Origin: an uncultured Polyangiaceae bacterium
GTDB taxonomy: Bacteria; Acidobacteriota; Thermoanaerobaculia; Multivoradales; JAHEKO01
Assembly: GCA_964195975.1 (NCBI GenBank)
Contig: CAXMQZ010000025.1
Span: 8,123-72,122 of the forward strand
Reading direction: 5' to 3'
DNA length: 64,000 nt
Shown: positions 11,394 to 46,617 of the stretch, in pieces
Layout: each line of letters begins with the position of its first letter
How positions within the stretch are numbered: position 1 is the stretch's first letter
Notes under the pieces: generated by a model
Seen by the model: only the letters and a program-made list of their open reading frames with translations
The model's database searches: none
Told to the model about the DNA's origin: nothing
Translations under genes and position numbers: made by a program

Positions 11394-11399
11394 GACAGC

Positions 11400-18169: not shown

Positions 18170-18248
18170 AAGATCTTGGTTCAGACTTCGATACCTATCT
18201 ATGTATATGTTTGACCTGGCTCTCGGTATGTGGAGAATAGAGGACCTT

Positions 18249-18476: not shown

Positions 18477-18768
18477 CTGAGGCAGCAGCCAAATTCGAAC
18501 CAGCCGGACCAGTCGCGCCGGTCAAACTTCCCCCGGGCGTTGTTTTTGTGTTTGAAACATGAAAGTTAGAGTAGTCTAAATTATTTTTGCCGTCAATTGT
18601 AGCCGCCTTAAGCATTTCCCAATCCATCGACCCTCGGGCACAGGGTTAGCTTTCTAACTGCAGTAGGATCGATTCTGCTGTCTACTAGAGGCGCAGCCGA
18701 GAGAGCCGCAGCCTTAGGGGCCGCGCTTTAGCCGCGGTAAATAACGATTCGAACAATAGCCGGCGAAA

Positions 18769-19446: not shown

Positions 19447-19583
19447 GAATGTCCAAGAAAGCCTATAGACGAGGCTCAATTTGTTAGAAAACAAAGCACT
19501 TAGCCTCTATAGTTCAGGTCGAGGAATCCCCGGTTCGATTGCTGGGCAGAACCCAGCGATCAAACCATGTCGAGGAATCTGCC

Positions 19584-20831: not shown

Positions 20832-20844
20832 GCTACGTGCCAGG

Positions 20845-21744: not shown

Positions 21745-21950
21745 AAAAGCGGCGGTCCTACACTCGATGGACACTCGAAGGGGCCGGTACGGTCTAGTGT
21801 ACACCGGTCGCCTAGGCATGTGCTCCGCTATTGTAGACTCGGCCCGACGCCGGGCCGAATCCTGTCGCCAGGAACGGGTTGCTGCAGGCTCGATTAGAAG
21901 CGAGTTGTTTCTCAGATACAATGACAAGTCCCGTTCGAGTAACCAGCCCC

Positions 21951-30030: not shown

Positions 30031-31722
30031 ATGAGAGTGATGAGATTTCAACTGTTTCCTGGACGAAGGTCCCATAGGACCAACCGAAGATTTCCGACGA
30101 CGCTTGTTGCGGGTCTAACCACTGTGGGGCTGTTGGTTGCTTCGACCACGGCGGGAGCCACTACCGTCAGCACTCAGCAGCCCGATCTGGCTCGAAAGCC
30201 GGCCCTGACGATTGCGAACGGCGAAGTAGAGCTGCGCCTGGAGGAGGCGGTCGCGATTGCTCTCGAGCGCAATTTGACTCTCGTCGTCGAGCGCTATGCC
30301 ACCGAGGAGGCGGAGCTAGTGATCAAACAGACTCGTGGAATCTACGATCTGTTTGGCACGGTCGATCTCTCCAACCTTGAAGACAACGCGCCGACGGCGT
30401 CGAACTTGTCCGGTGCCGCTGTGCAGGAGTTCAAGCGGAAGGACTGGAATTTTGGTGTGGATCAGCTGATCTCGAGCGGTGGTGTTATTTCCGGGGATTG
30501 GAACAACAACCGGCAGGAGACGAACTCGCTGTTCGCCACCCTGAATCCGAGCTACAGAATCGATCTCGATGTGAGCCTGAGTCAGCCTCTACTCCGTAAC
30601 GCGGGAAAAATGGCGACCAACCGCAATATCACCATTTCTCGCACCAACAAAGGAATCAGCCTCGAGAATTTCGAGCGACAAGTGACAGCGATCATTCTGA
30701 GGGTGGAGGAGGCCTACTGGAACCTGGCCGAGTCGATCGCCCAGCTGGGGGTTGCGGAAGAGAGCGAGGATCTGGCGGTGCAGCTACACGAGCAGAACAT
30801 CATCCGTGTCGAAGTCGGTACCATGGCGCCTCTCGAGTTGATTCAAAGCGAGGCTGGGGTAGCGGATCGAGTCGTTGAGATCATTCGCGCCAGGGCCTCT
30901 GTTGGGGACCGGGCCGACGTGCTGCGACAACTGCTCAATGTCGAGCGTGCCGACGATCTTTGGGCGATGCCGATCAACCCGATCACAGACCCGTTTTCAG
31001 AGCCTTTCGAGGTCGACGTGGATGCTGCCATCGCAACGGCGTTGGCTGAGCGGCCAGAGATCCGATCGAAGATGCTGGCGGTGTCGAACCAGGAGCTCGA
31101 TATTCGCTATTTTCGCAACCAGCAACGTCCCCGCCTCGACCTGAACGTCACCTATGGCCTGAATGGTGTGGGCGGTGATACTACCGATCGAGACTTTCTT
31201 AGCGGAGAGATCCTGGGGCGTGAACAAGGAGATTACGGCGACGCCATCGATCAGATTCTGAATGCCGATTTTGATGGCTGGAGGGCGGCGCTGAATTTTG
31301 CCTACCCGATCCAGAACCGAACGGCGGAAGCCAATAGAGCCCTCGCCGAGGTGAGCTACAACCGAGGGCGAGCCGAGCTTCAGGATATTGAGCTGGCGAT
31401 CGTCACAGAGGTCAGGCGTGTTGCTCGGCTTCTGGGAGCCTCGGCCGAAGGAGTCGAGTCTGCTGGAGTATCCAGGCGACTCGAAGAGAAAAACTATGAG
31501 GCCGAGCAGAAACGCTACGACAACGGGATGTCGACCAGTTTCCAGGTCCTGCGGATTCAGGAAGATCTGACGCGTTCTAGAAGCCGCTACGTGGCCGCCG
31601 TTGCAACCTACCGACGCGCCCTTGCCTTGCACTATCAGTCGATCGGCAAGTTGATCGAGCAGAGTGGCGTCGGAATTATTGGCGAAGCAACCGTGGATGA
31701 TGGCGAGCAGTCCGATTCCTGA
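30031..31722 (+). CDS. TolC family outer membrane efflux protein
   Basis: Signal peptide, L.LEEAV..ALERN, QPLLR, two OEP-type helical repeats, E..RY..G.ST.F.VL. Confidence 0.88.
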   Translation: MRVMRFQLFPGRRSHRTNRRFPTTLVAGLTTVGLLVASTTAGATTVSTQQPDLARKPALTIANGEVELRLEEAVAIALERNLTLVVERYATEEAELVIKQTRGIYDLFGTVDLSNLEDNAPTASNLSGAAVQEFKRKDWNFGVDQLISSGGVISGDWNNNRQETNSLFATLNPSYRIDLDVSLSQPLLRNAGKMATNRNITISRTNKGISLENFERQVTAIILRVEEAYWNLAESIAQLGVAEESEDLAVQLHEQNIIRVEVGTMAPLELIQSEAGVADRVVEIIRARASVGDRADVLRQLLNVERADDLWAMPINPITDPFSEPFEVDVDAAIATALAERPEIRSKMLAVSNQELDIRYFRNQQRPRLDLNVTYGLNGVGGDTTDRDFLSGEILGREQGDYGDAIDQILNADFDGWRAALNFAYPIQNRTAEANRALAEVSYNRGRAELQDIELAIVTEVRRVARLLGASAEGVESAGVSRRLEEKNYEAEQKRYDNGMSTSFQVLRIQEDLTRSRSRYVAAVATYRRALALHYQSIGKLIEQSGVGIIGEATVDDGEQSDS

Positions 31723-31725: not shown

Positions 31726-32577
31726 CTAGCCGCTCGTCGTCGGTGGTCGGACTCCGACTGCGACAATGAGATAGCCATGCCGGTGGAGTCGGGGAAATCG
31801 GTTGGCCAGCTTGGCAAAGAGATGAGACGCGAATCCGGTCAACCGGCCGATCGGCCGGCACCAGGTGTTGCATGCCAGATCCAGGATTCTCAGCCAGCCC
31901 GGGATGAAGAGAATTCCACTCTCGTTCTCGACCCGAAAACCGGCGCTCTCGAGCATCTGCCGTAGGGCCTTTCGAGAATACGACTTTTCGAAACCGTAGC
32001 CATAAAGGCCGAGTCGATACATGACTGCGACCATGAACGGTCTCAGGAAAGGGTCCCACCGATTCGGTACACCGATGATCGCCCGTCCCCCTGGTCTGAG
32101 TACGCGGTAGATCTCTGAAATCGCCTGTTCCGTTTCATCGAAGTGCTCGACGGTGCCCATCGAGTAAATTGCATCAAAGGATTGATCGCGATACGGGAGC
32201 CACCGGACATCGGCACGGGGGACGCGGAGGTCGAGGCTCCCAAACTCCGACTTCGCCTGCATCACGATGGGTAGAGAGATGTCTATGCCGTAACAGTCAG
32301 CGCCCTGGCCCGAGACCCAGCGAAGAATACGGGTGTTCTTGGCCTCGTCCCACATGTCGGTCTTCATGACTCGAAGACCCCTCAGGTCAGGAAGGTAGTC
32401 GTTGAAAAGACGTTGTTCGTCGGCAAGATAGCCCTGGGTGGAACTGGCGCCTGCAAGGTCTGGAAAATTGGTTCCTACATCGTTCCAGAATGCCCTATAT
32501 CGTGAAGTCGGCTTCGACGCCTCCTTGGAAGAGGAGCCTAGTTCCGGCGCCAGCGATCCGATTGTGGGTTCAGCCAC
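31726..32577 (-). CDS. Class I SAM-dependent methyltransferase with atypical motif I
   Basis: GIDIS, ADVR.LPY.D.SFD.I.S.G..EH, E..RVLRPGG. Motif I reads VMKTDMWDE instead of a Gly-rich loop. Confidence 0.85.
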   Translation of the reverse strand: MAEPTIGSLAPELGSSSKEASKPTSRYRAFWNDVGTNFPDLAGASSTQGYLADEQRLFNDYLPDLRGLRVMKTDMWDEAKNTRILRWVSGQGADCYGIDISLPIVMQAKSEFGSLDLRVPRADVRWLPYRDQSFDAIYSMGTVEHFDETEQAISEIYRVLRPGGRAIIGVPNRWDPFLRPFMVAVMYRLGLYGYGFEKSYSRKALRQMLESAGFRVENESGILFIPGWLRILDLACNTWCRPIGRLTGFASHLFAKLANRFPRLHRHGYLIVAVGVRPPTTSG

Positions 32578-33997
32578 CTCCAGTCTCCGGAACCGGAACC
32601 ATCTGAGTAGTGTCCGCCTCTTGCTGCTGATGAATCATCCAAAGAAAGACAAGAGCCGGTACAGCGACGGTCCAGGCTCGAATGAGAGCTACGTGAGGTT
32701 CGAACGATGTATGAGCAGACCATTCGCCGATCAGAACAACAGAAAGAGCCTGGGTGATCGCTAGAAACCCGCAAGCCATGCACCAGCGGCTCCAAGGGGG
32801 GTGCCCTTTCCAAGCGATCCAAAGTCCCGTTATCAAGCCGATCTGATACGGAGCCATGAGATAGACGGCTCGCTGAGGGTCGGAAAAGCCATGTCCAATG
32901 TGGGGAATGACCTGTTGGAGAAGGAATCGTCCTTCAAATAACAATCGATTCCAGGTCAGAGCCACCAGCAGAGCGATCAGAACGCTACCCGCCAAGGCCG
33001 CTGCGCCTCGTTTCACGATCTCGGGACTTGATTCAGTTTCTGAACTCGATCTATAGGCTGCCAGGCCCACCAAGAACGCCGCCAGGACAATTTGATGAAA
33101 CCCGTGAATTGCAGTCAACGGTGAACCGACAAGATCAGCCGGGAAAGCCAGAACGATCAAGCGCGCGGTTCCGAGGGCGAAGAAGACTGGACCGGAGAGG
33201 AGTACAGTTGCAAGCCTTTGCCTACGAGTCAGATCAAGCGCGAAGATGGCGGCAAAATATACCGGGATCAACGGAGTCATGATGCACTCCTGCGTCACCA
33301 CGAAACCACCATTGGCAGTCCTGATGTGGTTGCCGATAATATTCGCTTCCCCTCCAAACAATCGAATGATAGCGGCGCCGGAGGCGGCCACCCACTTGGC
33401 GATGGTCAGCACAACAGCGCTTTGCATCCACCAACCCGAGGCTCCGACAAAAAGACCGACGAACAGAAGCGTGAGCAGGACAAATTTTCTGCCCCGGCTG
33501 GAAAGACCGAAGCTGGAATGGGCCAGATCGTCTCCCTGGCTCACTGATGCAACACCGGCTCTTAGCGAGCGGCTCATCCAGACGAAAACAAAGATCGAGA
33601 CGACGATGAGTAACACCGCTGGCCAGACATAGATGTGCAGAGTGTTGAAGAGCTGGCGGTTGGTGACGACTCTGGAAAGAGTGGCGATTCGGACCGTGTT
33701 TACTGCCGCGATGAACAAAAGCCCGAGAGCTGCACCGGAGATCCGACGTCGCCACGGGGCAGGAAATGCCAGGATGAATCCCACGCACAACGCAATGACA
33801 TCGGCGGCCGAACAGCTTAGACCAACCGAGACCGGTGCATCGGGATTGCCACCGATCTTGCAGGCGACGCTCCACTGTGCGCTTGTGAAGGGCAGTAGCA
33901 GAGTCTTCTCGACCCAGGGGATGCGGAGGATCCCAAAGAGCGCAACGCTCAAGAGACCGGCCGTCAAGACAAACTTCAAGGCCCCACGGTTGTTCAT
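32570..33997 (-). CDS. Tandem (double-domain) exosortase/archaeosortase family protein
   Basis: Domain 1: SC..., AFP..WRRR, NTVRI, LH.YVW. Domain 2: VTQEC..., GTARL, IHGFH. Start ATG 33997 overlaps the ParA stop (ATGA). Confidence 0.8.
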   Translation of the reverse strand: MNNRGALKFVLTAGLLSVALFGILRIPWVEKTLLLPFTSAQWSVACKIGGNPDAPVSVGLSCSAADVIALCVGFILAFPAPWRRRISGAALGLLFIAAVNTVRIATLSRVVTNRQLFNTLHIYVWPAVLLIVVSIFVFVWMSRSLRAGVASVSQGDDLAHSSFGLSSRGRKFVLLTLLFVGLFVGASGWWMQSAVVLTIAKWVAASGAAIIRLFGGEANIIGNHIRTANGGFVVTQECIMTPLIPVYFAAIFALDLTRRQRLATVLLSGPVFFALGTARLIVLAFPADLVGSPLTAIHGFHQIVLAAFLVGLAAYRSSSETESSPEIVKRGAAALAGSVLIALLVALTWNRLLFEGRFLLQQVIPHIGHGFSDPQRAVYLMAPYQIGLITGLWIAWKGHPPWSRWCMACGFLAITQALSVVLIGEWSAHTSFEPHVALIRAWTVAVPALVFLWMIHQQQEADTTQMVPVPETGGG

Positions 33998-34758
33998 GCT
34001 TGCACCTTCTTGAGGCGTTTCCATACATGTCGACCGAGTTGCTCGAACTCTCGACCCGCTGTGCTGGTTGGGTGCACGAGACGGCCTGCTGTCGCAGCTG
34101 CCGCGACTTCGACTCGTTGTCCGATTGCGGGGGTAGTGGAAGCGTCTAGGCTCTTGACCTCCTGAGCGAAGCTACGCGCGAGTCGAGTTCGAAAGACCTG
34201 TCGTGAGGGCACGATCATGGTCCAGGGCAGCTCGCCTTCGCGTCCATGGCGCGCCCTGTGGGCGGCGTTGATCGTCTCCCGCGTCGCCTCGAGATCTAGC
34301 GCCGATGCACCGGCAGGAATGAGCACGAGATCAGCCACCTGTAACGCGAGTCGAGTAGGCGCCCCCGAACCTGGTGGCGTGTCGATGATCAGCACATCGA
34401 GGTCGGCGCCCAGGCTCCTGAGGTTCCGGCGAAACGACGCTGCACCTCGAGAGGGATCGAATTGGTGAACTTGGAAGGGTAGACCTCTCCCAGCGGAGGC
34501 CCACTGAAGTGCGGTGGCTCTGGGATCGAGGTCCATGACAGCTGTCTGTCGTCTTGATGATTTCAGAGAGCCGGCCAAATTCATCGCGATGCTGGTCTTC
34601 CCGGTTCCGCCCTTCGGCGAGACTAGAGCAATCAGGCGAAGGCGTCTCCCGGCACGGGTCGAGCTTTGAAACGTCGGCTCCTCGTCCAGGAAAAGACTGT
34701 CGATCTCGTCGAGATCGTCCGGATTGACCTTCTTGAGGAGTTTTTTGATAGAGCTCAC
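33994..34758 (-). CDS. Orphan ParA/MinD family ATPase (ParF/McdA-like)
   Basis: Deviant Walker A KGGTGKT, DLDP..TA..W, IIDTPP, ADLVLIP...S.LDL. Start uncertain (GTG 34758 or ATG 34797). Confidence 0.85.
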   Translation of the reverse strand: MSSIKKLLKKVNPDDLDEIDSLFLDEEPTFQSSTRAGRRLRLIALVSPKGGTGKTSIAMNLAGSLKSSRRQTAVMDLDPRATALQWASAGRGLPFQVHQFDPSRGAASFRRNLRSLGADLDVLIIDTPPGSGAPTRLALQVADLVLIPAGASALDLEATRETINAAHRARHGREGELPWTMIVPSRQVFRTRLARSFAQEVKSLDASTTPAIGQRVEVAAAATAGRLVHPTSTAGREFEQLGRHVWKRLKKVQA

Positions 34759-34850
34759 TTTGCAACTTTGTTTTAATTTGGTGGATCTCGACCTCATTCT
34801 AGAACAGTCACTACTCTCTCTCGCTCTTGGCAGATAGACTCCACCGCACC

Positions 34851-35258
34851 ATGAGGAACCCCGAAAGAGCGCTGATGGTACTACTTCGGGTGGGTGGCTG
34901 CGCGATGCTCTTGGCGACTCTGGCCATCGTTCTGCCGACCCGCTGGATGGCTTCGATTCATCAGTGGTTGGGTCTGGGAACATTCCCCGCCTTTCCTGTC
35001 GTCGAATATCTGACTCGATCCATATCAGCTTTGTACGCGATTCACGGCGGGCTTCTGCTTCTGGTTTCATCTGATATTCCTCGGTTCGCCCCCATCGTGC
35101 GATACCTTGGAGTGACTACCAGTCTGCTAGGAATCTCGTTGCTCGCCATCGATGTATTTGCAGGCCTGCCTGTCTATTGGGTCTTGTTCGAGGGGCCCCC
35201 AGTCATCTTGATCGGTGGGTTGATCCTCGGCCTGCTCGAGGCCAGTGGGCATAAATGA
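34851..35258 (+). CDS. Hypothetical membrane protein (4 TM)
   Basis: Hydrophobic ORF with P..WM...H.WLGLG.FP..P...YL.RS.S..YA pattern; ATGA overlap with the next gene. Confidence 0.75.
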   Translation: MRNPERALMVLLRVGGCAMLLATLAIVLPTRWMASIHQWLGLGTFPAFPVVEYLTRSISALYAIHGGLLLLVSSDIPRFAPIVRYLGVTTSLLGISLLAIDVFAGLPVYWVLFEGPPVILIGGLILGLLEASGHK

Positions 35259-36211
35259 GCACTCGCGAGGAATCGTCGAGAGTCGCGGCGTCCAGCGGTC
35301 TCTACCTGTTGAGTGCGTTCGGGCTTTTCTTGATCTGGAGCAACAGCTTCATTGCTGCGTCCTATTTACTCGGAACCGAGTCGGCTCAGCCACGTTTCGA
35401 CTGGGTCAGTCTCTCGGTGGCCCGTTTTGCACCCATCTTTCCGATCTGCCTGATCTACTGTCTTACCGTGGGACGCGCGGACGCTGTGCGGCTTCTTCGC
35501 GCTTATCCGGTTCGCCTGGTGGTTTGCAGTCTGCTCGCCGTGCCTGGCTACAACCTGGCGCTTTACTACGGGCAGCAACATGGGGTGCCTCCACCCATAG
35601 CTTCGCTGACGACTGCTCTCGTTCCTCTTTTTGTGATGATTCTGGCGGCCCTCTTTCTCGGCGAGGATCTGACTCTCAGAAGAACTCTGGCCTTTTGTTT
35701 GGCCTGCTTCGGGCTGGTTATCATTGCTCTGTCCAAGGGGGAACCGGGCGCTATCGCGGAGTACGGTTTTACCCTGGGTGTCACAGCTCTGGCGCCGCTG
35801 TCGTGGTCGATCTACTCGATCTTGAGCAAACCTGTCTCCGGCGCAGCCTCTCCATTGGTTTGGACTTATTTGAGCATCGTAGTCGGAAGTGTGCCGCTGC
35901 TCCTGTTGCTCCCGTTGAGGGGAGGTCCGGAGATGGCAGAGCTGCCTTTGGATGGATGGGCGGCCCTGTCGTATCTCTCCATCCTTTGCACCGTCGTCGG
36001 CTATGCCATCTGGACATGGCTGCTACGTCACCTTCCGGCGTCGACGGTAGGCTTCACGGTGTTCATGAACCCCCCATTGACGAGCGTGAACATAGTCATT
36101 TTGTCGTTGCTGTTTCCCGCAGTCTTTGTTCTCGAGGTGGGAGGTCTCGAATGGCTGGGAGGCGGGTTGGCGCTGGGCGGCATGGCGCTGGCGTTGTGGC
36201 CCGGGAAATGA
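35255..36211 (+). CDS. DMT/EamA family transporter
   Basis: Two EamA repeats, IWSNSF, P.F...LA..FLGE, YLSILCTVVGY..W; about 10 TM segments. Confidence 0.88.
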   Translation: MSTREESSRVAASSGLYLLSAFGLFLIWSNSFIAASYLLGTESAQPRFDWVSLSVARFAPIFPICLIYCLTVGRADAVRLLRAYPVRLVVCSLLAVPGYNLALYYGQQHGVPPPIASLTTALVPLFVMILAALFLGEDLTLRRTLAFCLACFGLVIIALSKGEPGAIAEYGFTLGVTALAPLSWSIYSILSKPVSGAASPLVWTYLSIVVGSVPLLLLLPLRGGPEMAELPLDGWAALSYLSILCTVVGYAIWTWLLRHLPASTVGFTVFMNPPLTSVNIVILSLLFPAVFVLEVGGLEWLGGGLALGGMALALWPGK

Positions 36212-36212
36212 A

Positions 36213-37619
36213 ATGGGCAATCCAATAAGAGCCTGGTGGCCTTTTGCCACGAGCGTCGGAGTCATGGTCTTGGCGTCGATTCTCAATTGCGGGGGTGACC
36301 CAGCGGATCGAATCGGCAAGCCGAAACATATTGTCGTCGTTGGTGTAGATACCCTGAGGTCCGACCATATGGGCGGCTGGGGCTATGAGCGTCCGACCAC
36401 ACCTACGATCGACGCACTGGCCGAAAATGAAGCGGTAGTCTTTGAAAACGCGTATTCCTCTTCCTCATGGACCCTGCCGTCCATGACATCGGTGTTTACC
36501 TCTCTTCATCCGATTCAGCATCAAGTCGTAGACAGAGGACTTCGTCTCGACCCGTCACTTTCGACGCTGGCAGGGACCTTGAGTGCTAAGGGTTGGCTCA
36601 CTGCAGGCTTCATAACGCATATCTATGTCAGCAGTCTGTTTGGTCTCGATAGCGGATTCGATGAGTATCACGAGCTATCGATCGATTGGAGGTTCAAGGA
36701 GGGGCATCAGCTTCGCGCTGACGCCCTCAACGACGAGGTGCTGCCGTGGCTCACCACCAACGCCGATGAACAATTTTTTGTCTATGTTCATTACTTCGAT
36801 CCTCACTGGGACTACGATCCGCCAGGGAGATGGTCAGAGGAATTTATCGACCCTTCCTACAAGGGCCGCGCGAATGGCACTTGGAGATACATCCGCAGGT
36901 TTCTCCCGCTCGACAAGATGATGCCTCCTCGGGCGCTCCAAAGGGTGATCGACCTCTACGACGGTGAAATCCTGTGGACCGATAGTCAGATCGGGAGACT
37001 GATCGACCATCTAAAGTCTCTAGGGATTTGGGATGAAACTCTCCTCGTTCTGCTGTCTGATCATGGTGAGGAGTTGCAAGATCATGGCTCCATGCACCAC
37101 ATTCGTACGCTGTATGAGGAGGTGTTGAGAGTACCGCTTTTGTTCAAGCTACCCGGAGGTCGCGGTAGGAGTATCCGGTCTCGCGTACCCGAGCGGATTT
37201 CCAATCTGGATATTGCGCCCACGATTCTCGATCTTGCCGGCATCGAGCCGCCGAGCGATTTTGAGGGTCGAAGCTTGCGACCGTTGATGTCGCAGGTGGG
37301 AAGGGACAGGCCGATTTTTGCGCACACCCTACGGCATGAAAGCGACAGAGCAACGCTGATTCAAGGAGATCTGAAAGTGATTCACTCCATGGTGCCTGGC
37401 GAGGAAGGCACCGAGCTGTACGATCTTGGCGTCGACGACAAAGAGTCCACAGATCTTGCGGAGACAAATCCGGCCATGACCCGGCAAGCATTGGACCGAT
37501 TGCTTTCCGAAATCGAACGAATGAGGACCTGGGGCAAGGACCGCAATTTGGAGCTCGATCCCACCTCTCTCACTGCAGAGCAGATCGAGCACCTCCGAGC
37601 CCTCGGTTACGTCGACTAG
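36213..37619 (+). CDS. Sulfatase-like alkaline phosphatase superfamily protein (possible lipoprotein)
   Basis: VDTLRSDH, TPTID, SWTLPSMTS, HYFDPH, YDGEI, SDHGE, VPLL, C-terminal LRALGY. Confidence 0.85.
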   Translation: MGNPIRAWWPFATSVGVMVLASILNCGGDPADRIGKPKHIVVVGVDTLRSDHMGGWGYERPTTPTIDALAENEAVVFENAYSSSSWTLPSMTSVFTSLHPIQHQVVDRGLRLDPSLSTLAGTLSAKGWLTAGFITHIYVSSLFGLDSGFDEYHELSIDWRFKEGHQLRADALNDEVLPWLTTNADEQFFVYVHYFDPHWDYDPPGRWSEEFIDPSYKGRANGTWRYIRRFLPLDKMMPPRALQRVIDLYDGEILWTDSQIGRLIDHLKSLGIWDETLLVLLSDHGEELQDHGSMHHIRTLYEEVLRVPLLFKLPGGRGRSIRSRVPERISNLDIAPTILDLAGIEPPSDFEGRSLRPLMSQVGRDRPIFAHTLRHESDRATLIQGDLKVIHSMVPGEEGTELYDLGVDDKESTDLAETNPAMTRQALDRLLSEIERMRTWGKDRNLELDPTSLTAEQIEHLRALGYVD

Positions 37620-39364
37620 TCCCGAAACGCCACAAACCTTCCCCAACAGGAAGCCAGCTCCATCCCCCGTTGGACAAAGGCTGCGATGTAATAGCGACCG
37701 TTTTCCGCTTTGGCGAACTCATTGCCGAGGTTTTCGGCATGAACGATCGCCTTGGGAAAGAGGTTCAGATGCATGTCCTGGTAGTACTTGTCGAGTGGGA
37801 ACATCTCATCCCAGTCTTTGCCGAATCGATCGATGAGCTTCTGATTGGCCTCCGCGAAGGTCTTCGGATGAAACACGCGTTGGATCGTATTCATTGGGTG
37901 CTCCATCGCCACACAATCGATTCCGAGCCACTTGATATCTCTCTCAACGCACCAGTCGGAAAATTCGGGCGAGGGCCCAGGATGTTTGATCATGTAACGG
38001 AACTCATCAGAGTCGGGGCTGTTCCAACCAAATCGGTGGTATCCGGTCCTGATGAGAAGTATGTCGCCATCGTGTAGATCGACCTTCTCCTCGATCATCT
38101 CTGGCGTGTAGACACTCGAGTCGCTGACATCTTCCGAGATGTCGACGATCACACCGGGGCCGTGCCAGTAGTCGAGAGGCACCTCGCCGATGGTTCGACC
38201 CGCGGCCCAGAAGTGCTTCTCGCCATCCATGTGAGTGGCAAGATGGAAACTGGCCCTGCAGTGAGCGTTGTTTCGTCCCAAACCGAAGTTCAACCCGCCG
38301 ACACGCTTGGTGTACTTGACACTCAGGGGTTCGTAGTTGGCCCACTGTGGCGTCTGTACGCTGAATGGAAGAGTGAGATCCAGCATTTCGACCTCGGTCA
38401 TGGCGTCGAGGAAAGCAGCTTGCTCTACACCCTCCGGTGCGGACAACGCTACAACGCGGCTCCAGGCCGATTCGACCTCCATAAAGGGAATCGGCTGAAT
38501 CATGAACCAGGCACGCTGATTGTTGAGCGCATCAATATCTCCTCCGATGGCTTCTGTGAGAAGGAGGCCAGACTTGGGTAGGGTAGTGTGGCTCAGGTGC
38601 TGGTAGTCCTCGGGTGGGAAGAGCTCGTCCCAACCCTTTCCGTAGGTCTCTCGAGTCTTGAGCTCGGCTTTCTCGAACTCGGTTGGGTGCATGAATCGAA
38701 CATTGGTGTTCATAGGGTGCTCGGCGCAGCCGCAGTCGACTCCGATGAGTTTGAGCTTCATGTCGATGGCCCAGGTGAAGAAGTCGGGTGAAGGTCCGGG
38801 ATGGCGAACGTAGTACCCGAACTCCTTGTTCTCGATGCCGCCCTGTCGATCTGGGTTCGCCACATCGGGCTGGTCCCAGGCATATTTGTGATAGCCGGTA
38901 TTGATGATCAGGATGTCACCTTGTTTGACGTCGACCCGGTCGGTAATCATCTCCGGTGTATAGAGGTCGTAGTCGGATACAGCATCGGAGATGTCGGCTA
39001 CGACTCCCTGGCCGCAAAGATCGGTGAGAGGAATTTCAGATATTGCTCGAGATCCGGAATTAAACGCCCTGGGACCCACAAGGTGGCAGCCGGTGTTGTT
39101 GCTCCACTCGATCAGTTGTCCGTTGGCACCCTGACCGCCACCGAACGAGCCGGTCAAGCGTTTAAAGAAATGGACTTGGAGCGGCATTTCTCCGGGCCAG
39201 GGCGGTGTAAATACACTGAGCGGTTGGGTCAGGTCGTGCCAACAGGCTTGGGTCATCATCGAGATCAGTTCTTTGCGGTCCATGTCATCTACCCTCCGGC
39301 AAACCTCATTGTAGCTGGAGTCGTCTCCGCCTCGACCCTCGATGGTAGGGAGAGGAGACGACAA
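37616..39364 (-). CDS. Tandem-duplicated cyclase family (kynurenine formamidase-like) metallohydrolase
   Basis: Two internal repeats, each with DLT.P.S..TP.W, G.GV..DIS, GDIL.I.TGYH, HPGPSP, G.DC...EHPMNT. Metal motif HLATHMD is present in the second repeat only. Confidence 0.85.
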   Translation of the reverse strand: MSSPLPTIEGRGGDDSSYNEVCRRVDDMDRKELISMMTQACWHDLTQPLSVFTPPWPGEMPLQVHFFKRLTGSFGGGQGANGQLIEWSNNTGCHLVGPRAFNSGSRAISEIPLTDLCGQGVVADISDAVSDYDLYTPEMITDRVDVKQGDILIINTGYHKYAWDQPDVANPDRQGGIENKEFGYYVRHPGPSPDFFTWAIDMKLKLIGVDCGCAEHPMNTNVRFMHPTEFEKAELKTRETYGKGWDELFPPEDYQHLSHTTLPKSGLLLTEAIGGDIDALNNQRAWFMIQPIPFMEVESAWSRVVALSAPEGVEQAAFLDAMTEVEMLDLTLPFSVQTPQWANYEPLSVKYTKRVGGLNFGLGRNNAHCRASFHLATHMDGEKHFWAAGRTIGEVPLDYWHGPGVIVDISEDVSDSSVYTPEMIEEKVDLHDGDILLIRTGYHRFGWNSPDSDEFRYMIKHPGPSPEFSDWCVERDIKWLGIDCVAMEHPMNTIQRVFHPKTFAEANQKLIDRFGKDWDEMFPLDKYYQDMHLNLFPKAIVHAENLGNEFAKAENGRYYIAAFVQRGMELASCWGRFVAFRD

Positions 39365-39389
39365 CTCAGCTGCACCGCTTTTTGACCGA

Positions 39390-41424
39390 TCAAAACAAGA
39401 GACGCAAGGACAGAGAGATATCGCGGCCCGGCATCGGTCGCTCGAACTTTGAAACAGATGAGGCGTTGAAAGCCAGCTCGTCAGTCAGATTTCTACCTCT
39501 TATCAACAGATCGAAGACCTGGTTGCCCAGGAAGAACCGATACCCCGCAGAGGCGTTGACCATGGTGTAGCTGGGGGTGGGTAGCTCGTTTGCAGCGACG
39601 CGGTCTTGAGCGTCGATCCAGCGAACCTCTCCTTCCGCGTGCCATTTGACTGATCCGAAGTGGAGTCCGCCCCCTATTCGAAAGGGTGGAATCAGGGGTA
39701 GAGGCTCCCCCGAGTCTCGGAGCTCGGCCCGCACATAGTCGGCCATGAGTTTGAGGTCGAGATGCCGGTTGGCGTTGTGCCAGAGGTCGTACTCGATATC
39801 GAGCTCACCACCCAAAAACTCAGCGTCGCTGTGAACATATTGCAGTACGGTCAGGCCGTCGATTTCTTCGCCGGTAAACATCTGGAAGATGAAGTCATCA
39901 AAGCGGTTCAGAAAGAGGGTCAGGTCTCCGTGCAGCGGACCACCACTGCGACGCAGAGACAGGTCGAACCCCAGGCTCGTCTCCATATCCAGGGTTGGAT
40001 CACCGATCTCGATGGTCCGAGTAGCGGCGTGGGCTCCGTCGGAGTACAACTCTGAGACGTTGGGAGCCTTTTGTGAGCGTGCCAGCGAGGTGCCGAGCGA
40101 CCATTCCTCGGGGAGATCCCATACGAGGCCGACCGAGAGGCTGACGGGTGTGAAGGAGCGATCGGCGAGGTCGGATTGACTCACGGTGTGGTCCACCGAC
40201 TCGAGCCTGGCGCCGAATTGCCAACTCAGGTCACCGGTGCTGAGCTCTTCAAAGGCAAATAGTCCCCAGGTTGTGGTTCCCGATGGTGGCAGAAAGGCCT
40301 CCTCGCCGATGGCCTCGAGATCGTCGTTGAGGATCTGAAGCCCCATCGCTCCCGACCAGCGTCCTTTTTGTTTCTGGACGAGCTCGAAGCGACCTTCGAC
40401 AGTGTCTTTGAGAAACTCGGTTCCTACTTCCGAGCCTTCGAGCTCGAGGTGTTTGTAATCGACGACACCGAGACGGGCCTTGAAGCCGCGAAAGATACTG
40501 AAAGGTTGAGTAATCTCTCCGTTGAAGTCGAACCTGCGACGTTCGAGGTCGATGCGGACATCTCCTTCCTCGTGCTCTTCCTCTTCGCCACGCCCACTTC
40601 CCGGCGCCTCCGTTCAGATCGACTCGACCAGAGAGCTCATCGGCCACCGTGCCAGCGCCGAAGTCGAATTGTCCAGTGATCTTCTCCGTGGGCTGTAGGT
40701 CAGGGATCGTATTGTCGATCACGTTGACGACGCCGCCGATGGCAGTCGATCCGTAGAGCAGGGTAGAGGGTCCCCGTAGTACTTCGATTCTTTGCGCGGC
40801 GCCAGGATCGACCCCCACCGCGTGATCGGGGCTTGTGCTCGAGACATCCCCCGTGCTGAGCCCGCCTTGCAACATCCGGACTCGATCGCTGCCCAGGCCA
40901 CGGATGATCGGCCGGCTGGCTCCGGCGGTAAACCAGGTCTGATTGATCCCCGCTTCCTGCGACAGGGTGTCGCCCAGAGTGGGCTGGATACGAAGAGCTA
41001 GCGATTCACCGCTGAGTATGGTGACGGGATTGGCCAGCTCGAGCTGGCTGCGGGGATCGGCACTGCCGGTCACCACGATCGCATCGCTGTGATGGTGGCG
41101 GCCCATATCGATCTCTATCTGCGTGGTTTGCCCCGCCTTGACTTCATAGCGTTCTACGAGTGACCCATATCGATCACTCTCCACCTGAATGAGGTAGGCG
41201 CCGGGCGGCAGACCGTCGAATCGAAAAGCTCCCTTGGTGTCGACGGAGCTCTGGCGTCTCAGGTCGACAAGAGTCACCAGGGCATCATCGACGGGGGTAC
41301 CGTCCTCAGCGAGGACCGTTCCCGAGATTGATCCTGTCTCTTGAGCGTTCAAGATTGTAGCGAGGACCAGGCTCAAGCCCAGAAACCAGGTCCCAGGCAG
41401 AAATTTGTAATGAGTACAACTCAT
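39390..41424 (-). pseudogene. ZnuD-like TonB-dependent receptor with N-terminal carboxypeptidase-regulatory-like domain, disrupted by an internal deletion/frameshift near 40590
   Basis: 5' frame: signal peptide, IVVTG TonB-box region, RPIIRGL, PDHAV, RIEVLRGP.TLLYG..AIGGVVN, ending at KWAW. The other frame resumes GEEEEHEEGDVRIDL...G.H.AT...EIG...PGR...F*. Confidence 0.8.
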
Positions 41425-41551
41425 TGTTCCAGTCTCCTGTTGTCTAGCTGTCAAGCTGCTTCCGACGAACAGATCGCCGAACCGTCTCGTTGCGCTGACT
41501 GGGATGCCCACAGTCGAGGGCACTTACTGATGGAGTATTTCTAGACCTGGT

Positions 41552-41941
41552 TCAACTGGAGGGAGGGCCGCGCGGAGACGCGGATGTGAGTGTGCGGAGG
41601 AGCAGATTGCTGCTACCGATCACGAATGAGCTATCTGTTTGATCGGATTGGAGCGTCGACCCATAGTGGGGCAGATGAGATTCTCTCAGCTGCTGATGGA
41701 TCGCACAGGCCGTACAGGCCAGCGTTTGAATCGAGACCGGTGCCTCGAGGTGAAGAGTCGTCAGTGGCTCGTTGTGGCCCGCATGGGACCGAGCTGTAGC
41801 CTGCCCGTTTAGGCCGATACCTATCGGATGGTGAATGGGCTCATGGAGCTGGAGACCGAGATTGCCAAGGCCCAGAAGGGCCAGAAGGGCCAAGCCGAGA
41901 ACGGCCAGGGGTCTAGAGAGTCGTTGTCTCTGACTATCCAT
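41552..41941 (-). CDS. DUF2946-like His-rich, CxxC, C-terminal RGPP protein (putative regulatory uORF/arrest peptide)
   Basis: N-terminal hydrophobic segment, several His, CTAC, ends ASPRGPPSS*; directly upstream of the TonB-dependent receptor. Confidence 0.7.
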   Translation of the reverse strand: MDSQRQRLSRPLAVLGLALLALLGLGNLGLQLHEPIHHPIGIGLNGQATARSHAGHNEPLTTLHLEAPVSIQTLACTACAIHQQLRESHLPHYGSTLQSDQTDSSFVIGSSNLLLRTLTSASPRGPPSS

Positions 41942-42175
41942 CCTATGGAGAATTTTCCGCTATCAGGGCAAGTCATGCAAGCCGCCGACTCTCGGCAGCA
42001 CTGCTTCTGACGCTTGGGGCTTGGTGCTTGATCGACCCGCTGTCGGTCCGAGTTGGAGAACCTACCCGTTTAGGTGTTTCGGCTGAAATTCCTCGGAGTT
42101 ACGATTTCCAAGGAACCGCTTCAAGAAGCGGTGATCCGATCATTCGACCCGACACGAAGGCAGGAGGATAGTTTG

Positions 42176-43234
42176 ATGAAAGTAAAAACCACAGCAGTGG
42201 TTCTGTTGGGCTTTTTGACCCTGGTAGGTTGCGCCAAGAAGTCTGAGACAGTGAGCTCCGATGCGAGTGTGGATCCGCCGGAGGTTAACGACTCTCAACT
42301 GTGGGAGGATGCCGACTTGCGTTTTCAGGCGCTCCCGACTTCGGCTCCCAACCCCGAGAACGAAGTCACCCGGGCCAAGGTCGATCTGGGAAAGAAGCTC
42401 TACTTTGATAACCAACTCTCAGAGCAGGGAACCATCAGCTGCAACTCCTGTCACGATCTCGCGAACTTCGGTGTCGATAGCCTGCCAACCTCGCCAGGCG
42501 ACGATGGTGGTCTAGGTGGTCGAAACTCGCCTACGGTCTTGAACGCAGCCCTGCATGGCACCCAGTTCTGGGATGGTCGGGCCAAGGACGTAGAAGAGCA
42601 GGCTGGGATGCCGATTCTGAACTCGGTCGAGATGGCTATCCCGAGTGAGGAATTCCTGGTCGAAAGATTGTCGGGCTCCGAAGAGTACCAACGGATGTTT
42701 GTAGAAGCCTTCCCCGACGAGACCGAGTCGCTGACCTATCTGAACATACAAAAGGCCCTGGCAGCTTTCGAGCGCACGCTCTTGACGCCGTCTCCCTTCG
42801 ACGACTTTCTACTCGGAAATCAGGACGCTCTTAGCGCGGAGGCGAAGACCGGGTTGCAGACCTTTATCCGCCTTGGTTGTACCGCCTGTCACAACGGTGT
42901 GAATGTCGGTGCCAACAGCTTTCAAAAGTTCGGTTTGCACGGCAACTATTGGGAGCACACAGGTAGTACCGAAATCGATGAAGGGCGGGAGCAGGTGACC
43001 CAGGATGAAGCCGATAGATACTTCTTCAGGGTGGCTTCACTTCGAAACGTAGAAAAGACCGCACCGTATTTTCATGACGGTAGCGTTGAAACGTTGGAGG
43101 AGGCGGTGCGGGTGATGGTCAGAATTCAGCTGGGAATGGAGCTGACCGATCAGCAGGTATCCGCTCTCGCCGCCTTTCTACGCAGCCTGACGGGCGAGGT
43201 ACCTGCCGAAGCTCAACAGACCGCGGGCGGATAG
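42176..43234 (+). CDS. ccp: Di-heme cytochrome c peroxidase lipoprotein
   Basis: Lipobox LVGC, CNSCH and CTACH, RNSPTV.NA, QFWDGRA, TAPYFHDGS; AGGAGG SD before ATG 42176. Confidence 0.93.
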   Translation: MKVKTTAVVLLGFLTLVGCAKKSETVSSDASVDPPEVNDSQLWEDADLRFQALPTSAPNPENEVTRAKVDLGKKLYFDNQLSEQGTISCNSCHDLANFGVDSLPTSPGDDGGLGGRNSPTVLNAALHGTQFWDGRAKDVEEQAGMPILNSVEMAIPSEEFLVERLSGSEEYQRMFVEAFPDETESLTYLNIQKALAAFERTLLTPSPFDDFLLGNQDALSAEAKTGLQTFIRLGCTACHNGVNVGANSFQKFGLHGNYWEHTGSTEIDEGREQVTQDEADRYFFRVASLRNVEKTAPYFHDGSVETLEEAVRVMVRIQLGMELTDQQVSALAAFLRSLTGEVPAEAQQTAGG

Positions 43235-43329
43235 CGCCCAGCGCGACTAGGTTGAACCTGGTCGCTCTGGATGGCCTAGGACCAGTTTTCAGGGAATGTC
43301 GGAGCCCATGTGCTAGCGTCGCCTGAAGC

Positions 43330-44058
43330 TTGCCAAACCCAACTTGTACTACAACCGGTATCGGGACGATCGCTCGTGGATCAGTGGCACCCGGAGAGGA
43401 GTATCTAGTCAGACGTCCCTTGGTCATCATGGCTACGCTTGCCTTTCTCGTAGTGCCGCCTCGAACCTCGGCTGGCGACGTGAGTTTCGATTTCGACGGC
43501 AACTCCTACACGATCGTCGTGACCGGTGCGGTCTGGTCGGCCGCCAGCACGGCAGCTCAGTCCAGTGTGATTCAGGGGGTACCTGGTCATCTTTGCATCA
43601 TCGGTAGCGATGCAGAAGACGCCGCGGTCTTCAACAACATGGTGATTGCGGGGGTCGACACGGTTGCCTCTAACGGGGGTGGAGCGATCTACGGCTGGCT
43701 GGGTGGTTCCGACGATAGCGGGTCGATCCCCGGTGCAAGCGAAGGGGAGTTCTACTGGATCGATAGTACCCAGTTTTGGACCGGTGGAATGGCTGGAGGA
43801 TCCGTTGGGGGCGCCTACTCCAACTTTGGACGTCCGCAAGAACCAGACAACTTTCAAGGGCAGGATCATTTGGCAATGGCGCTCGAGACCTGGCCTGTCG
43901 GAAGCCCCGCACCTTTCGGTGGTCCAGGACAGTGGAACGACATCAATAGCGAGGATCTACAGAACGAGCTTGCCTATTGTGTAGAACACGATCTGACTAT
44001 CTTCAGCGACGGCTTTGAGTCGGGCAACATGTCCGCGTGGTCGGCCACCCTACCGTAG
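43330..44058 (+). CDS. Secreted C-type lectin-like protein with IFSDGFESG..SAW C-terminal tail
   Basis: W..A, GHL..I.S..E, WLGG.D, EG.F.W, YSNF..PQEPD, WND and CVE C-type lectin motifs. Start uncertain (43330-43429). Confidence 0.7.
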   Translation: MPNPTCTTTGIGTIARGSVAPGEEYLVRRPLVIMATLAFLVVPPRTSAGDVSFDFDGNSYTIVVTGAVWSAASTAAQSSVIQGVPGHLCIIGSDAEDAAVFNNMVIAGVDTVASNGGGAIYGWLGGSDDSGSIPGASEGEFYWIDSTQFWTGGMAGGSVGGAYSNFGRPQEPDNFQGQDHLAMALETWPVGSPAPFGGPGQWNDINSEDLQNELAYCVEHDLTIFSDGFESGNMSAWSATLP

Positions 44059-44135
44059 TCAAAAACTCTTCCACCGATCGGGTCCAGGGTGATCCCAACC
44101 CATGGGCTGCTGCGTTTGGTAGCCTCTCCGTCCCG

Positions 44136-46439
44136 ATGGAATCCAGCCGTAGCTCCGGACGACAAGTGGCTCTCATGTTGGGAGCTCTGCTAGCGACGCC
44201 TTTTGTGTCGAGAGCTCTCCTCATCTACGAGACCGGTTCGGGGTTGGTCGCACAGGATCTTCGTGGGTTTCTCGCCGATCTGGGAATCGCTCTGCTGGCC
44301 TTGCCGCTGGTGTTGTTGGCAAGAAAGATCTCGCGTTGGCTCGGGGTGTTTTTTGTCTTGTTCTGGACTCTTGTTCATTGGCTCAACTTCGAAGTGGTCG
44401 CCGATCTTGGCTCGCTGGCGTCGGTGCTAGACCTCGAATTTCTGACCGACGAGACTTTCCTGGCGGGTTCGGCAACGAACATCTCCAGGCCGATGGTTCT
44501 GTCACTTCTATGCCTCGTCACGGCTGTCGTGGTTTGGCGAAGTAGAGGCGACTGGTCAATTCGCATCACCTTGGCAAGCCTGATCGTGGCGGGCGTCGTT
44601 TTGCTGGGCCAGAGTCTTTGGCTGACCTCGCAAGATGTGGCCGACTGGCGTCAAAACGACTTCATTCAGGCCAACATCATCTATCTGATGCGACCTGGGA
44701 CCGAAACGTCGAGCATTGTGAGTGATCCTCGCATTGCAATGCTCGACCTCGTACCCGAGATGGCAGCGGATCTCGACGGCGAACCGATCCTTCCTCTGCC
44801 GGGGGGCGCTAGAAACATTCTGTTGGTCATTGTCGAGGGACTTTCGGGAGCTTTCGTGCCGAGTCTGGCAGCAGATCATGATGTTCACGACCTTTTCGAG
44901 ATGCCGAATCTCGACCGACTTGCTACTTCGAATCTCAGCTACTCGAACTTCGTCAACCAGAATCGCAAGACCAACCGAGGCACTTTCACTCTCTTGTGCG
45001 GCGAGCCACCCAACCTGGTTCCGGGCACTCCAAAGATGACGCAGGTAGCGATGGTAGGTGGACGGATCTGCCTACCTCAGGTGCTGCACGACGCTGGGTT
45101 TGAGACGGCCTATCTTCAAGCAGCCCCTCTCGCATTCATGGTCAAGGATCAGTTTGCGGCCAAGGCAGGCTACGACCAGGTCTACGGCCTGACCCATTTC
45201 GACACCAAACGGGCTGCGGCGCACAGCAAGTGGGGTATCGATGACCTGTCGCTCTTCGAGCAGAGCCTGGAAGTGATCGACGAGCTCCGCGCAGCCGCAA
45301 AACCATGGTTTGCTTCGATTTTGACGGTAGGCACGCACCACCCCTATGTGCTTCCCGAGGATTCCTCCGATGGCAGTGGCGATGAGGCTGGGCGACGGCG
45401 AGCCGCCTTTATGCATGCCGATCGTGCGATCGGTTGGCTGGTCGAGGCGCTCGACAAACGGGGAATCCTCGAGGACACACTCGTTCTGATCACGTCGGAT
45501 GAGTCGAGAGGCGCTCTTCCAGGCGATCCAAAAGAAGGGCTACACATCGGTAACATCGCTCGACGGCTGACGGAGAACTGGGGAGTCCTTATCGCCATCC
45601 AGCCGGAGGAGAAGATCGAGCGAATCAAGGAGCCCTTCGCCCAGATGGATATTGCGCTCTCGGTCTTGGACTATCTCGGTCTATCTGAGCGAACCGGGAG
45701 CTTCTTTGGCAGGAGTGTATTTAGACGCTATCGAGAGGCGCGTTTCATACCTTTTGCCAACACGAATCTACTCAGGGCAGGTGCGATCGATTCGGCAGGG
45801 ACTCTCTTTGATTGCCGCATCACGACCAACGAATGCTCGAAGTGGCAGATAAGTAACAAAGCCTTCTTCGGCTCGGATCGGGTCCGACTCGAGTGGGATG
45901 AGGCGACGGATCAAATGGTGCTGGAGTTTGCCCGTCGGAGTCAGTCGGAGATCTCTGCGACCGAAGCCGATTACGAGATCGAGCTTTTGACACAAGCCCG
46001 CCAGCAAGTACAGGAGAGGCGAGTTCTTCACGGTGGTCCTCACATTACGCTGATGCCGGGACAATGGCTCGAGGTCGACATCGATGTCGAAGCGAGAGGC
46101 CCTGGCGGAGAGGTGTCGCTTCTTCACTACGTGAGGCAAACACGTGGTTGGGGTGCCATACAACAGGCCACACAAGAGAGTGATGATAAGAAAAAGTTCT
46201 ATTCCAATCGATTCAAGTTAGGCGACGGCGATCGTGTCCATATCAACTACACAATCGTCCCGGAGGGCGGTGGAAGAATGGATGGTATCAAAGCAGTGTC
46301 GGACGCTGCTGTCGCCGAAGGCCAGCCATTCGAGCTTATCTTCCACAGTGCGGTCATGAGAGTCCATGTCAGCGAAGACAGGCCGGAGCCGGTGTTTCAA
46401 CTTCGCGTGCAGAATCTCACTCGCTCACACAAACCGTAG
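44136..46439 (+). CDS. LTA synthase / phosphoglycerol transferase-like membrane protein (alkaline phosphatase superfamily)
   Basis: About five N-terminal TM helices, NILLVIVEGL, catalytic-Thr region KTNRG, WGIDD, TVGTHHPY, ITSDE. Confidence 0.78.
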   Translation: MESSRSSGRQVALMLGALLATPFVSRALLIYETGSGLVAQDLRGFLADLGIALLALPLVLLARKISRWLGVFFVLFWTLVHWLNFEVVADLGSLASVLDLEFLTDETFLAGSATNISRPMVLSLLCLVTAVVVWRSRGDWSIRITLASLIVAGVVLLGQSLWLTSQDVADWRQNDFIQANIIYLMRPGTETSSIVSDPRIAMLDLVPEMAADLDGEPILPLPGGARNILLVIVEGLSGAFVPSLAADHDVHDLFEMPNLDRLATSNLSYSNFVNQNRKTNRGTFTLLCGEPPNLVPGTPKMTQVAMVGGRICLPQVLHDAGFETAYLQAAPLAFMVKDQFAAKAGYDQVYGLTHFDTKRAAAHSKWGIDDLSLFEQSLEVIDELRAAAKPWFASILTVGTHHPYVLPEDSSDGSGDEAGRRRAAFMHADRAIGWLVEALDKRGILEDTLVLITSDESRGALPGDPKEGLHIGNIARRLTENWGVLIAIQPEEKIERIKEPFAQMDIALSVLDYLGLSERTGSFFGRSVFRRYREARFIPFANTNLLRAGAIDSAGTLFDCRITTNECSKWQISNKAFFGSDRVRLEWDEATDQMVLEFARRSQSEISATEADYEIELLTQARQQVQERRVLHGGPHITLMPGQWLEVDIDVEARGPGGEVSLLHYVRQTRGWGAIQQATQESDDKKKFYSNRFKLGDGDRVHINYTIVPEGGGRMDGIKAVSDAAVAEGQPFELIFHSAVMRVHVSEDRPEPVFQLRVQNLTRSHKP

Positions 46440-46531
46440 TTTCCCGTCCTAGACAGATGGGGCGAGTCGATCTGGTGCGGTGAGTGGGGTAGGGGAGCGA
46501 CGAGTCCCTGAGGCACGGGTGGAGGATTGGA

Positions 46532-46617
46532 TGGTGCCGAAGGGGGGATTCGAACCCCCACGGTATTGCTACCGGCGGATTTTGAGTCCGCTGCGTCTTC
46601 CATTCCGCCACTCCGGC
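46532..46617 (-). tRNA. tRNA-Leu (anticodon CAA)
   Basis: GCCGGAG TGGCGGAATGGAAGACGC A GCGGA CTCAAAA TCCGC, long variable arm, GGGGG TTCGAAT CCCCC CTTCGGC A CCA. Confidence 0.97.

Follow-up and report, generated by a model that had tools for sequence, protein, structure and literature searches.

Tandem XrtH-like exosortase and an atypical SAM-fold transferase form a conserved gene pair in Acidobacteriota, with a ParF-like ATPase as a candidate partner in one subclade

Orphan ATPases of the SIMIBI class, among them McdA, PpfA/ParC, BcsQ, TadZ and FlhG, serve non-DNA cargo or an envelope machine, and the enzyme pairs SpeH/SpeE and MccD/MccE yield an aminopropyl group. The archaeosortase ArtA requires PssA and PssD, with a lipid amine proposed as the nucleophile; in the available part of that report, Methanosarcina shows synteny of the genes, and midcell is the common location of the three proteins (PMC7157517). 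Exosortases are widespread enzymes. For the exosortases, the available part of a 2025 account raises the possibility that they are transpeptidases, leaving a new, still unnamed moiety on the protein (PMC11980579), while the accessible portion of another paper annotates an IPTL-CTERM domain on an S-layer protein of Methylomirabilis (PMC8671808). Here we describe a locus in a 64,000-nucleotide stretch of DNA (hereafter the window) from an uncultured Polyangiaceae bacterium assigned to the Acidobacteriota (assembly GCA_964195975.1, contig CAXMQZ010000025.1, positions 8,123 to 72,122), in which three minus-strand genes encode a ParA-type ATPase (ParA), a tandem exosortase related to XrtH (XRT) and an atypical class I S-adenosylmethionine (SAM)-fold transferase (MT). 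An earlier interpretation of the letters alone (the sequence-only reading) had proposed that they form a coupled operon for a positioned protein-sorting and modification system. On balance, and with moderate confidence, we favor the view that XRT is an XrtH-like sorting machine, that its SAM-fold partner supplies a modifying group, and that ParA was recruited in the subclade of the window.

A one-genome-per-species scan returned 170 stretches encoding XRT relatives. The best 80 loci, nearly all from metagenome-assembled genomes (MAGs) of Vicinamibacterales or other Acidobacteriota, were kept for all locus counts, and their genes were called by codon usage, clustered, and searched with the window proteins and the cluster representatives. 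MT is present in 54 of the 80 loci, and in 37 of the 52 that extend at least 5 kb on both sides. It lies within 5 kb of XRT on the same strand in 53 loci, and in three loci a single open reading frame (ORF) holds both proteins. A profile search of 1.84 billion representative sequences yielded 272 XRT family members at E<=1e-30. Of the 150 best, 18 are at least 680 residues long, and in 17 of these an MT domain follows XRT. These counts uphold the earlier proposal that the atypical methyltransferase is a real partner of the exosortase. XRT and MT form a solid unit that is widespread in Acidobacteriota, including Vicinamibacterales, Thermoanaerobaculia and their relatives.

A third activity accompanies this unit in many relatives. 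A protein of about 128 residues, a pyruvoyl S-adenosylmethionine decarboxylase (AdoMet_dc), is encoded in 45 of the 80 loci. It scores 79.6 bits against TIGR03330, above the cut-off of 75.65, and 42 of 43 of the proteins contain ESH..H.WPE, which we take to be the self-processing site of the decarboxylase. The AdoMet_dc genes are found no more than 300 nt from XRT or MT, on the same strand, in 44 of 46 cases. Furthermore, P0377 and P0399 are XRT-MT-AdoMet_dc fusions, P0372 is an XRT-AdoMet_dc fusion, and P0457 bears the AdoMet_dc domain at its N-terminus. Independent fusions of these kinds strongly indicate that the three activities act in concert. Large GT-C-like membrane proteins are also encoded near XRT (PTPS_related in 30 loci, PMT_2 in 13).

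XRT belongs to the exosortase superfamily, with 39.7 bits against the signature TIGR04178 (cut-off 23). The best-scoring subfamily is XrtH (TIGR04177), which gives 74.1 bits in two stretches, below its cut-off of 86; with 475 residues as compared to the 158 positions of the XrtH profile, XRT falls outside XrtH proper. The XrtH model aligns with residues 65-151, in the first repeat. When the two halves of XRT (residues 1-150 and 165-325) were compared as profiles, they were related with a probability of 90.6% (E 1.3e-6), with Cys62 aligned to Cys238 and Arg103 to Arg279. The catalytic residues are present in both halves, and all 79 XRT relatives retain Cys62, Arg103, His121, Cys238, Arg279 and His298. 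By this comparison, XRT is a true internal duplication, as the description of a double exosortase had implied. The third domain is unrelated to repeats 1 and 2 in profile comparison and has no relative in Pfam or the PDB, the best Pfam match being YfhO at E 0.26; its residues Asp373 and Gln375 are kept in all 79 relatives and Arg440 in 78. Hydropathy indicates about 12 hydrophobic helices in XRT and, in combination with the positive-inside rule, predicts that both cysteines are at the outer membrane boundary and that the C-terminus is cytoplasmic. This topology agrees with the C-terminal fusion to the soluble MT domain in the relatives.

The partner MT is a class I enzyme by its Pfam matches, which fall in Methyltransf_11/25/23 (Methyltransf_11: 68.6 bits, cut-off 21.2, over residues 83-168 only). 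The alignment with solved relatives is similarly confined to residues ~84-169, all of the Pfam and PDB matches begin at residues 83-88, and the N-terminus of MT has no relative in either database. The glycine-rich motif I (GxGxG), which holds the methionine part of SAM, is the hallmark of class I methyltransferases. In MT it is replaced by KTDMWDE (family form KTDLWDE), a segment whose residues K72, D74, W76, D77 and E78 are shared by all 27 aligned sequences, and the later motifs are kept. The identity across the family is 55-68% for MT as compared to 34-67% for XRT, and relative to the window it is 65% vs 42% in locus L001 and 68% vs 54% in locus L040. Given that MT is more conserved than XRT, its substrate or acceptor is likely to be small and conserved, perhaps an amine or the head group of a lipid. 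The databases contain over 2000 relatives of MT, which, where named, are called only 'class I SAM-dependent methyltransferase'; NCBIfam (June 2026) holds no family for either XRT or MT.

Candidate substrates are encoded beside XRT in related loci. Two families of secreted proteins share a C-terminal signal composed of (V/T)P(T/A)LP, a hydrophobic helix and RRR, which is present in 25 of the 28 members of one family (cluster 3, Ice-binding-like/DUF7933) and in all 8 of the other (cluster 9, fn3). At least one neighbor with a VPTLP/PALP motif, helix and RRR tail occurs in 34 of the 80 loci. In L001, the product of the gene directly following MT ends in GAVPTMGEWAML..RLRQR; it scores 19.8 against the IPTL-CTERM model (cut-off 20.5) and is also just below the cut-off of the midcut-by-XrtH model.

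ParA exceeds every cut-off of the CbiA, AAA_31, MipZ and ParA Pfam models and has the deviant Walker A P-loop KGGTGKT, and is thus a member of the ParA/MinD ATPases. It matches NF041546 ('ParA family partition ATPase') over its full length with 129.8 bits, below the cut-off of 180, and its closest solved relative is ParF of TP228 (4dzz, 59.6 bits), while McdA is a weak PDB match (25.4 bits). Matches to BcsQ (42.3 bits vs 157.85), MinD (22.1 vs 212.9), a CpaE homologue (18.6 vs 154.45) and, weakly, VirC1 are all sub-threshold. A tyrosine kinase of the BY-kinase type was considered and ruled out, as EpsG reached only 16.6 bits. The subfamily bears an N-terminal peptide, DDLDEID[SG]LF, in 33 of 34 close homologues (at least 51% identity) and in none of 73 more distant ParAs; a variant, DELDDVDALF, is found in 7 of the 12 members of the next group, and the peptide matched no relative in Pfam or the PDB. 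It is likely to be a protein-binding peptide.

Within the subclade of the window, ParA appears to be tied to the exosortase. The window and L040 form a clade with 99% support in the Shimodaira-Hasegawa-like approximate likelihood ratio test (SH-aLRT), in a tree without L033, the genes of which are fragmented. Overlaps of stop and start codons are common in operons and, taken alone, are weak evidence of a link. The ParA/XRT junction of L040 nevertheless has an equivalent 8-nt overlap, ATGCCTGA, and since its XRT is only 54% identical to that of the window, the coupling is above chance; the proposal of a coupled operon is strengthened accordingly. ParA also adjoins XRT in L033. Upstream of ParA lie citrate synthase in L040, tRNA-Leu(CAA) and CarD in L033, and an unrelated block in the window. 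Because ParA stays coupled across these three contexts, its functional tie to XRT-MT within the subclade is likely. Six more ParA/XRT pairs in metagenomic protein lists have identical longest-contig sizes (8573, 6265, 86662, 3337, 2761 and 5469), from which we infer that the members of each pair share a contig.

In the mechanism that we propose, each repeat of the double exosortase would provide an intact Cys/Arg/His site on the outer side of the inner membrane; the enzyme, which also has the third, four-helix domain, would work with the cytoplasmic, highly conserved MT. XRT would cleave IPTL-CTERM-like tails at the outer face and pass the protein to an acceptor. MT, with the decarboxylase, would install an aminopropyl group, and hence a primary amine, on a conserved small molecule or lipid, and the product would be the acceptor or a modifier of the acceptor. 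This could proceed by aminopropyl transfer from decarboxylated SAM or by aminocarboxypropyl transfer followed by decarboxylation, which is the route of MccD/MccE. Aminopropyl installation is more plausible than methylation because a true methyltransferase would lose its cofactor to a decarboxylase fused to it. The modifying group is therefore probably aminopropyl, and MT would not be an ordinary methyltransferase. By analogy, an aminopropyl acceptor would parallel the ethanolamine lipids proposed for ArtA and rhombosortase. In the subclade, a small ParF-like ATPase with a unique acidic N-terminal peptide would have joined the operon as its leading gene, coupled to XRT in translation, and ParA would most likely be a regulator, assembly factor or positioner of XRT-MT that docks via this peptide.

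A bolder version of this mechanism, which we regard as distinctly unlikely as it stands, would unite XRT, MT and the decarboxylase in one machine: an aminopropyl acceptor is made at the inner face, its amine resolves the acyl-enzyme, and a polyamine-like linker anchors IPTL-CTERM-type proteins, while ParA with its docking peptide restricts the anchoring in place or time. If true, it would name the moiety attached by one class of exosortases, and the ParA variant would be the first bacterial partition-type ATPase dedicated to a protein-sorting enzyme, in parallel with the midcell confinement of the archaeosortase. The gene fusions name the helper enzymes, and with them a testable chemistry that would use SAM or its decarboxylated form and involve an aminopropyl group. 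XRT-MT is a compact two- or three-gene system, and the family is large in soil Acidobacteriota, where it has no curated family name.

Several observations weigh against the favored reading and have to be set beside the rival explanations. The decarboxylase link, the fusions and the IPTL-CTERM-like neighbors were all seen in relatives and not in the window: no decarboxylase was found among the window proteins scanned, and no protein with a C-terminal sorting signal is encoded in the 64 kb, so that, if the reading holds, other parts of the genome must encode both. The chemistry assigned to MT is drawn from gene linkage and the altered motif I only, MT has no Pfam or NCBIfam match to the spermidine synthase family at E<=0.01, and its solved relatives are ordinary methyltransferases, including phosphatidylethanolamine/phosphoethanolamine N-methyltransferases and LahSB, a peptide C-terminal methyltransferase, although MccD is also among them (5fcd, E 2.1e-5). 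MT could thus be an ordinary SAM methyltransferase acting on a phospholipid head group, the cleaved protein or the tail, with the decarboxylase serving general polyamine synthesis. The Pfam placement and the absence of a nearby decarboxylase from the window clade agree with this explanation, which we nonetheless consider rather unlikely. A fused decarboxylase would consume the cofactor of such an enzyme, yet P0377 and P0399 exist; nearly all of the decarboxylase genes directly abut XRT or MT; no spermidine synthase is found among the annotated conserved neighbor clusters (1-13, 20 and 21); and, where motif I would bind methionine, MT has acidic and aromatic residues.

The place of ParA is the more contested part. 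The neighborhood conservation that the sequence-only reading had expected across Acidobacteriota MAGs held for MT and failed for ParA, which is present (at least 150 bits) in only 2 of the 80 loci, L033 and L040, and absent from the other 78, so that at the level of the whole family ParA is not retained with the exosortase. It is also missing from L001, the sister to L040 and the window, where MT and TolC are present. The gene fragmentation in L033 and the indirect nature of the matched contig sizes further lessen the weight of the remaining pairs. Neither did the expectation hold that ParA would stand apart from plasmid ParAs: its core is most like the small plasmid-type ParF/ParA proteins, with 3075 plasmid records matching at <60% identity; the best 12 listed are 34-38% identical, over residues ~28-253, and none of these aligns before residue 28. 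Given these features, ParA may be an incidental passenger, a plasmid or island remnant or the partner of a ParB elsewhere, that lies beside XRT-MT by shared descent. Consistent with a remnant, one MAG has an XRT module among generic ParA genes and insertion sequence (IS) elements, and neither an adjacent partner gene nor a centromere-like repeat was found, the stretch upstream of ParA showing only 10-nt repeats at chance level. The neighboring genes are outside the ParB and ribbon-helix-helix (RHH) families, none of which was detected among the window genes scanned, as the earlier claim of a missing adjacent partner had it; the locus thus lacks the adjacent partner and the repeat-type centromere of a ParABS or ParFG system. 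A passenger is possible but doubtful, however, in view of the stop/start overlap that persists between genomes with 54%-identical XRTs, the retention of ParA beside XRT while the upstream neighbor differs in three genomes, and the near-invariant N-terminal motif that is absent from all 73 of the other ParAs. Moreover, XRT occupies the usual partner-gene place of small ParA operons, and the region is not compositionally foreign (GC content 0.56-0.58, as compared to 0.54-0.59 across the window). Alternatively, ParA could be a structural or assembly subunit like BcsQ or TadZ, rather than a nucleoid-based positioning motor. It is the first gene of an envelope-machine operon without a ParB-like partner, the sub-threshold BcsQ and VirC1 matches point the same way, and the signature lysine is lost in some members of the subfamily: 3 of the 34 close homologues (P0081, with QGGTGKT, P0082 and P0108) lack the canonical KGGTGKT, a further point against the favored reading, and parts of the subfamily may be able to do without ATP hydrolysis. 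Since the BcsQ, TadZ and MinD models remain far below their cut-offs and the best model is that of a partition ATPase, we judge this explanation unlikely. The reading in which the subclade recruited ParA to a sorting unit of XRT and MT is the one that we retain.

The features of the locus are collected in Table 1. All three ORFs, both overlaps and the GGAG upstream of MT were confirmed, bearing out the earlier description of three interlocked minus-strand genes. An 8-nt XRT/MT overlap is also present in L001, by ORF coordinates. For ParA, an alternative ATG at 34797 would give 267 residues, and the frame is open as far as 35070; the start in Table 1 is likelier because homologues with 89% identity have 254 residues and begin at the same residues, with the N-terminus MSS..K.LKK. 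The N-terminus of XRT, MNNRGALKF, matches that of its database homologues. Scans for promoters, terminators, repeats and Rfam families gave nothing informative.

Table 1. Positions of the genes, overlaps, domains and motifs of the locus, and of the neighboring insertion, in the window
Feature	Coordinates	Strand	Details
ParA	33994-34758	(-)	254 aa from GTG at 34758; TGA at 33994-33996
DDLDEIDSLF, N-terminal short linear motif of the ParA subfamily	34690-34719	(-)	alignment of homologues
ParA stop/XRT start overlap	33994-33997	(-)	ATGA
XRT, tandem XrtH-like exosortase	32570-33997	(-)	475 aa, ATG at 33997
Exosortase repeat 1, residues 1-150	33548-33997	(-)	Cys62 33812-33814, Arg103 33689-33691, His121 33635-33637
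Exosortase repeat 2, residues 165-325	33023-33505	(-)	Cys238 33284-33286, Arg279 33161-33163, His298 33104-33106
Third membrane domain, residues 326-475, ~4 predicted helices	32573-33022	(-)	Asp373, Gln375 invariant
XRT stop/MT start overlap	32570-32577	(-)	GTGGCTGA, 8 nt; GGAG 7 nt upstream
MT, atypical class I SAM-fold transferase	31726-32577	(-)	283 aa, GTG start
KTDMWDE in place of glycine-rich motif I	32344-32364	(-)	MT alignment
Insertion from ParA to tRNA-Leu(CAA)	34.8-46.5 kb (34827-46617 including the tRNA)		~11.7 kb

The window is chromosomal, and its genes include DnaB, PriA, RecJ, CarD, AccA, RpoN and Lpt. A gene for a TolC-family outer-membrane protein (30031-31722, plus strand) is convergent with MT, with 3 nt between their ends, and a TolC-like neighbor is common to L001, L033, L040 and the window, that is, to all four members of the clade; this may reflect shared synteny or a functional link. 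On the other side of the operon, the tRNA-Leu(CAA) gene of the window (46532-46617) adjoins CarD, and the intervening genes encode a four-transmembrane (4TM) protein, EamA, a sulfatase, a cyclase-domain protein, a TonB receptor, a cytochrome c peroxidase, an unknown protein of 242 residues and a sulfatase-domain protein of 800 residues. Because the same tRNA-Leu and CarD genes are directly beside the operon in L033 and L001, where the block is missing, we interpret it as a lineage-specific insertion. The suggestion that the divergent 4TM/EamA/sulfatase part supplies or exports a substrate was dropped: this part, together with the cyclase gene, has no counterpart in the 80 loci and sits in the insertion beside tRNA-Leu. 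The block resembles an island with its insertion site at the 3' terminus of the tRNA gene, but no integrase was seen in it. Its ZnuD-like TonB-dependent receptor is split over two overlapping frames (39390-41523, minus strand), with the plug and N-terminal part at 40249-41523 and the C-terminus of the barrel at 39390-40346, the result of either a frameshift that made it a pseudogene or a mistake in the assembly. The sequence TGTGTCACAAT, with the inverted repeat TGTG-N-CACA, is found upstream of ParA in both L033 and L040; as a shared ParA operator it was rejected, since it is absent near the window ParA and occurs in the window less often than chance would predict. Elsewhere in the window, at 9225-21927, a cyclic di-GMP cluster encodes two PAS-GGDEF-EAL proteins, two PilZ-domain proteins and one DUF4388 protein.

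Some relatives carry the module more than once. In one Vicinamibacterales MAG the MT-XRT module occurs six times, each time on a different contig of 65-112 kb (L002, L006, L007, L009, L010 and L032), accompanied by a PMT_2-like protein and, at some of the sites, by a SAM decarboxylase; plasmids or repeated mobile regions may account for these contigs. Around the module of L006 lie IS5 and IS1 transposases, a pair of generic ParA genes and small genes of toxin-antitoxin size. In addition, several genomes (L015/L044, L004/L054, L039 and L061) hold two paralogous tandem exosortases, of which one type is preceded by an fn3 protein ending in a PALP-type tail, with no MT in the vicinity, and the other is beside the decarboxylase and MT.

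The XRT-MT unit is undescribed in the literature that we found. No publication was found that treats exosortases together with S-adenosylmethionine decarboxylase, those on exosortases and spermidine were unrelated by title, and none on a ParA/methyltransferase/exosortase system was found by title. The earlier claim that the combination is new agrees with these searches, which did not extend to the original exosortase survey, where related forms may be mentioned. Within the same bounds, neither a SAM-fold nor a decarboxylase partner was found described for XrtH. XrtH with its IPTL-CTERM/IPTLxxWG-CTERM signals (TIGR04177, TIGR04174) is the described system most like XRT in score, and the neighbors of the relatives carry IPTL-CTERM-like tails. 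XRT differs from it in scoring below the cut-off, in its length of 475 residues, which accommodates a complete second catalytic repeat and a further domain, and in its dedicated SAM-fold partner, often accompanied by SAM decarboxylase.

The ATPase is closest to the type Ib partition ATPases (ParF of TP228 and small plasmid ParAs) in its core size, deviant Walker A motif, best solved and curated matches and position as the first operon gene. However, it falls short of the family cut-off, has no ParG/ParB gene or centromere-like repeat, is coupled to a downstream gene for a membrane enzyme, and carries the extra DDLDEID[SG]LF peptide. It is analogous to McdA, PpfA, BcsQ, TadZ and FlhG as an orphan ATPase beside a putative envelope machine, but matches none of their family models above cut-off. 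The EIDAL peptide binds FlhG. The acidic motif of ParA resembles the EIDAL-type peptide of FliM/FliY by eye only; the term EIDAL occurs in the available part of PMC12826062. As in SpeH/SpeE and in MccD/MccE of microcin C, a SAM-fold transferase is paired with a decarboxylase, and MccD is a solved relative of MT, whereas MT itself is outside the spermidine-synthase families and the enzymes here are tied to a membrane sortase. Finally, the archaeosortase ArtA of Haloferax and Methanosarcina is the nearest precedent, as a Cys-type sorting enzyme dependent on amine-lipid enzymes that include a decarboxylase. In place of serine transfer and phosphatidylserine decarboxylase, the present system would use two unrelated enzymes, a SAM-fold transferase and SAM decarboxylase; its candidate positioner is a ParA-type ATPase, and its accessory enzymes are sometimes fused to the sortase itself.

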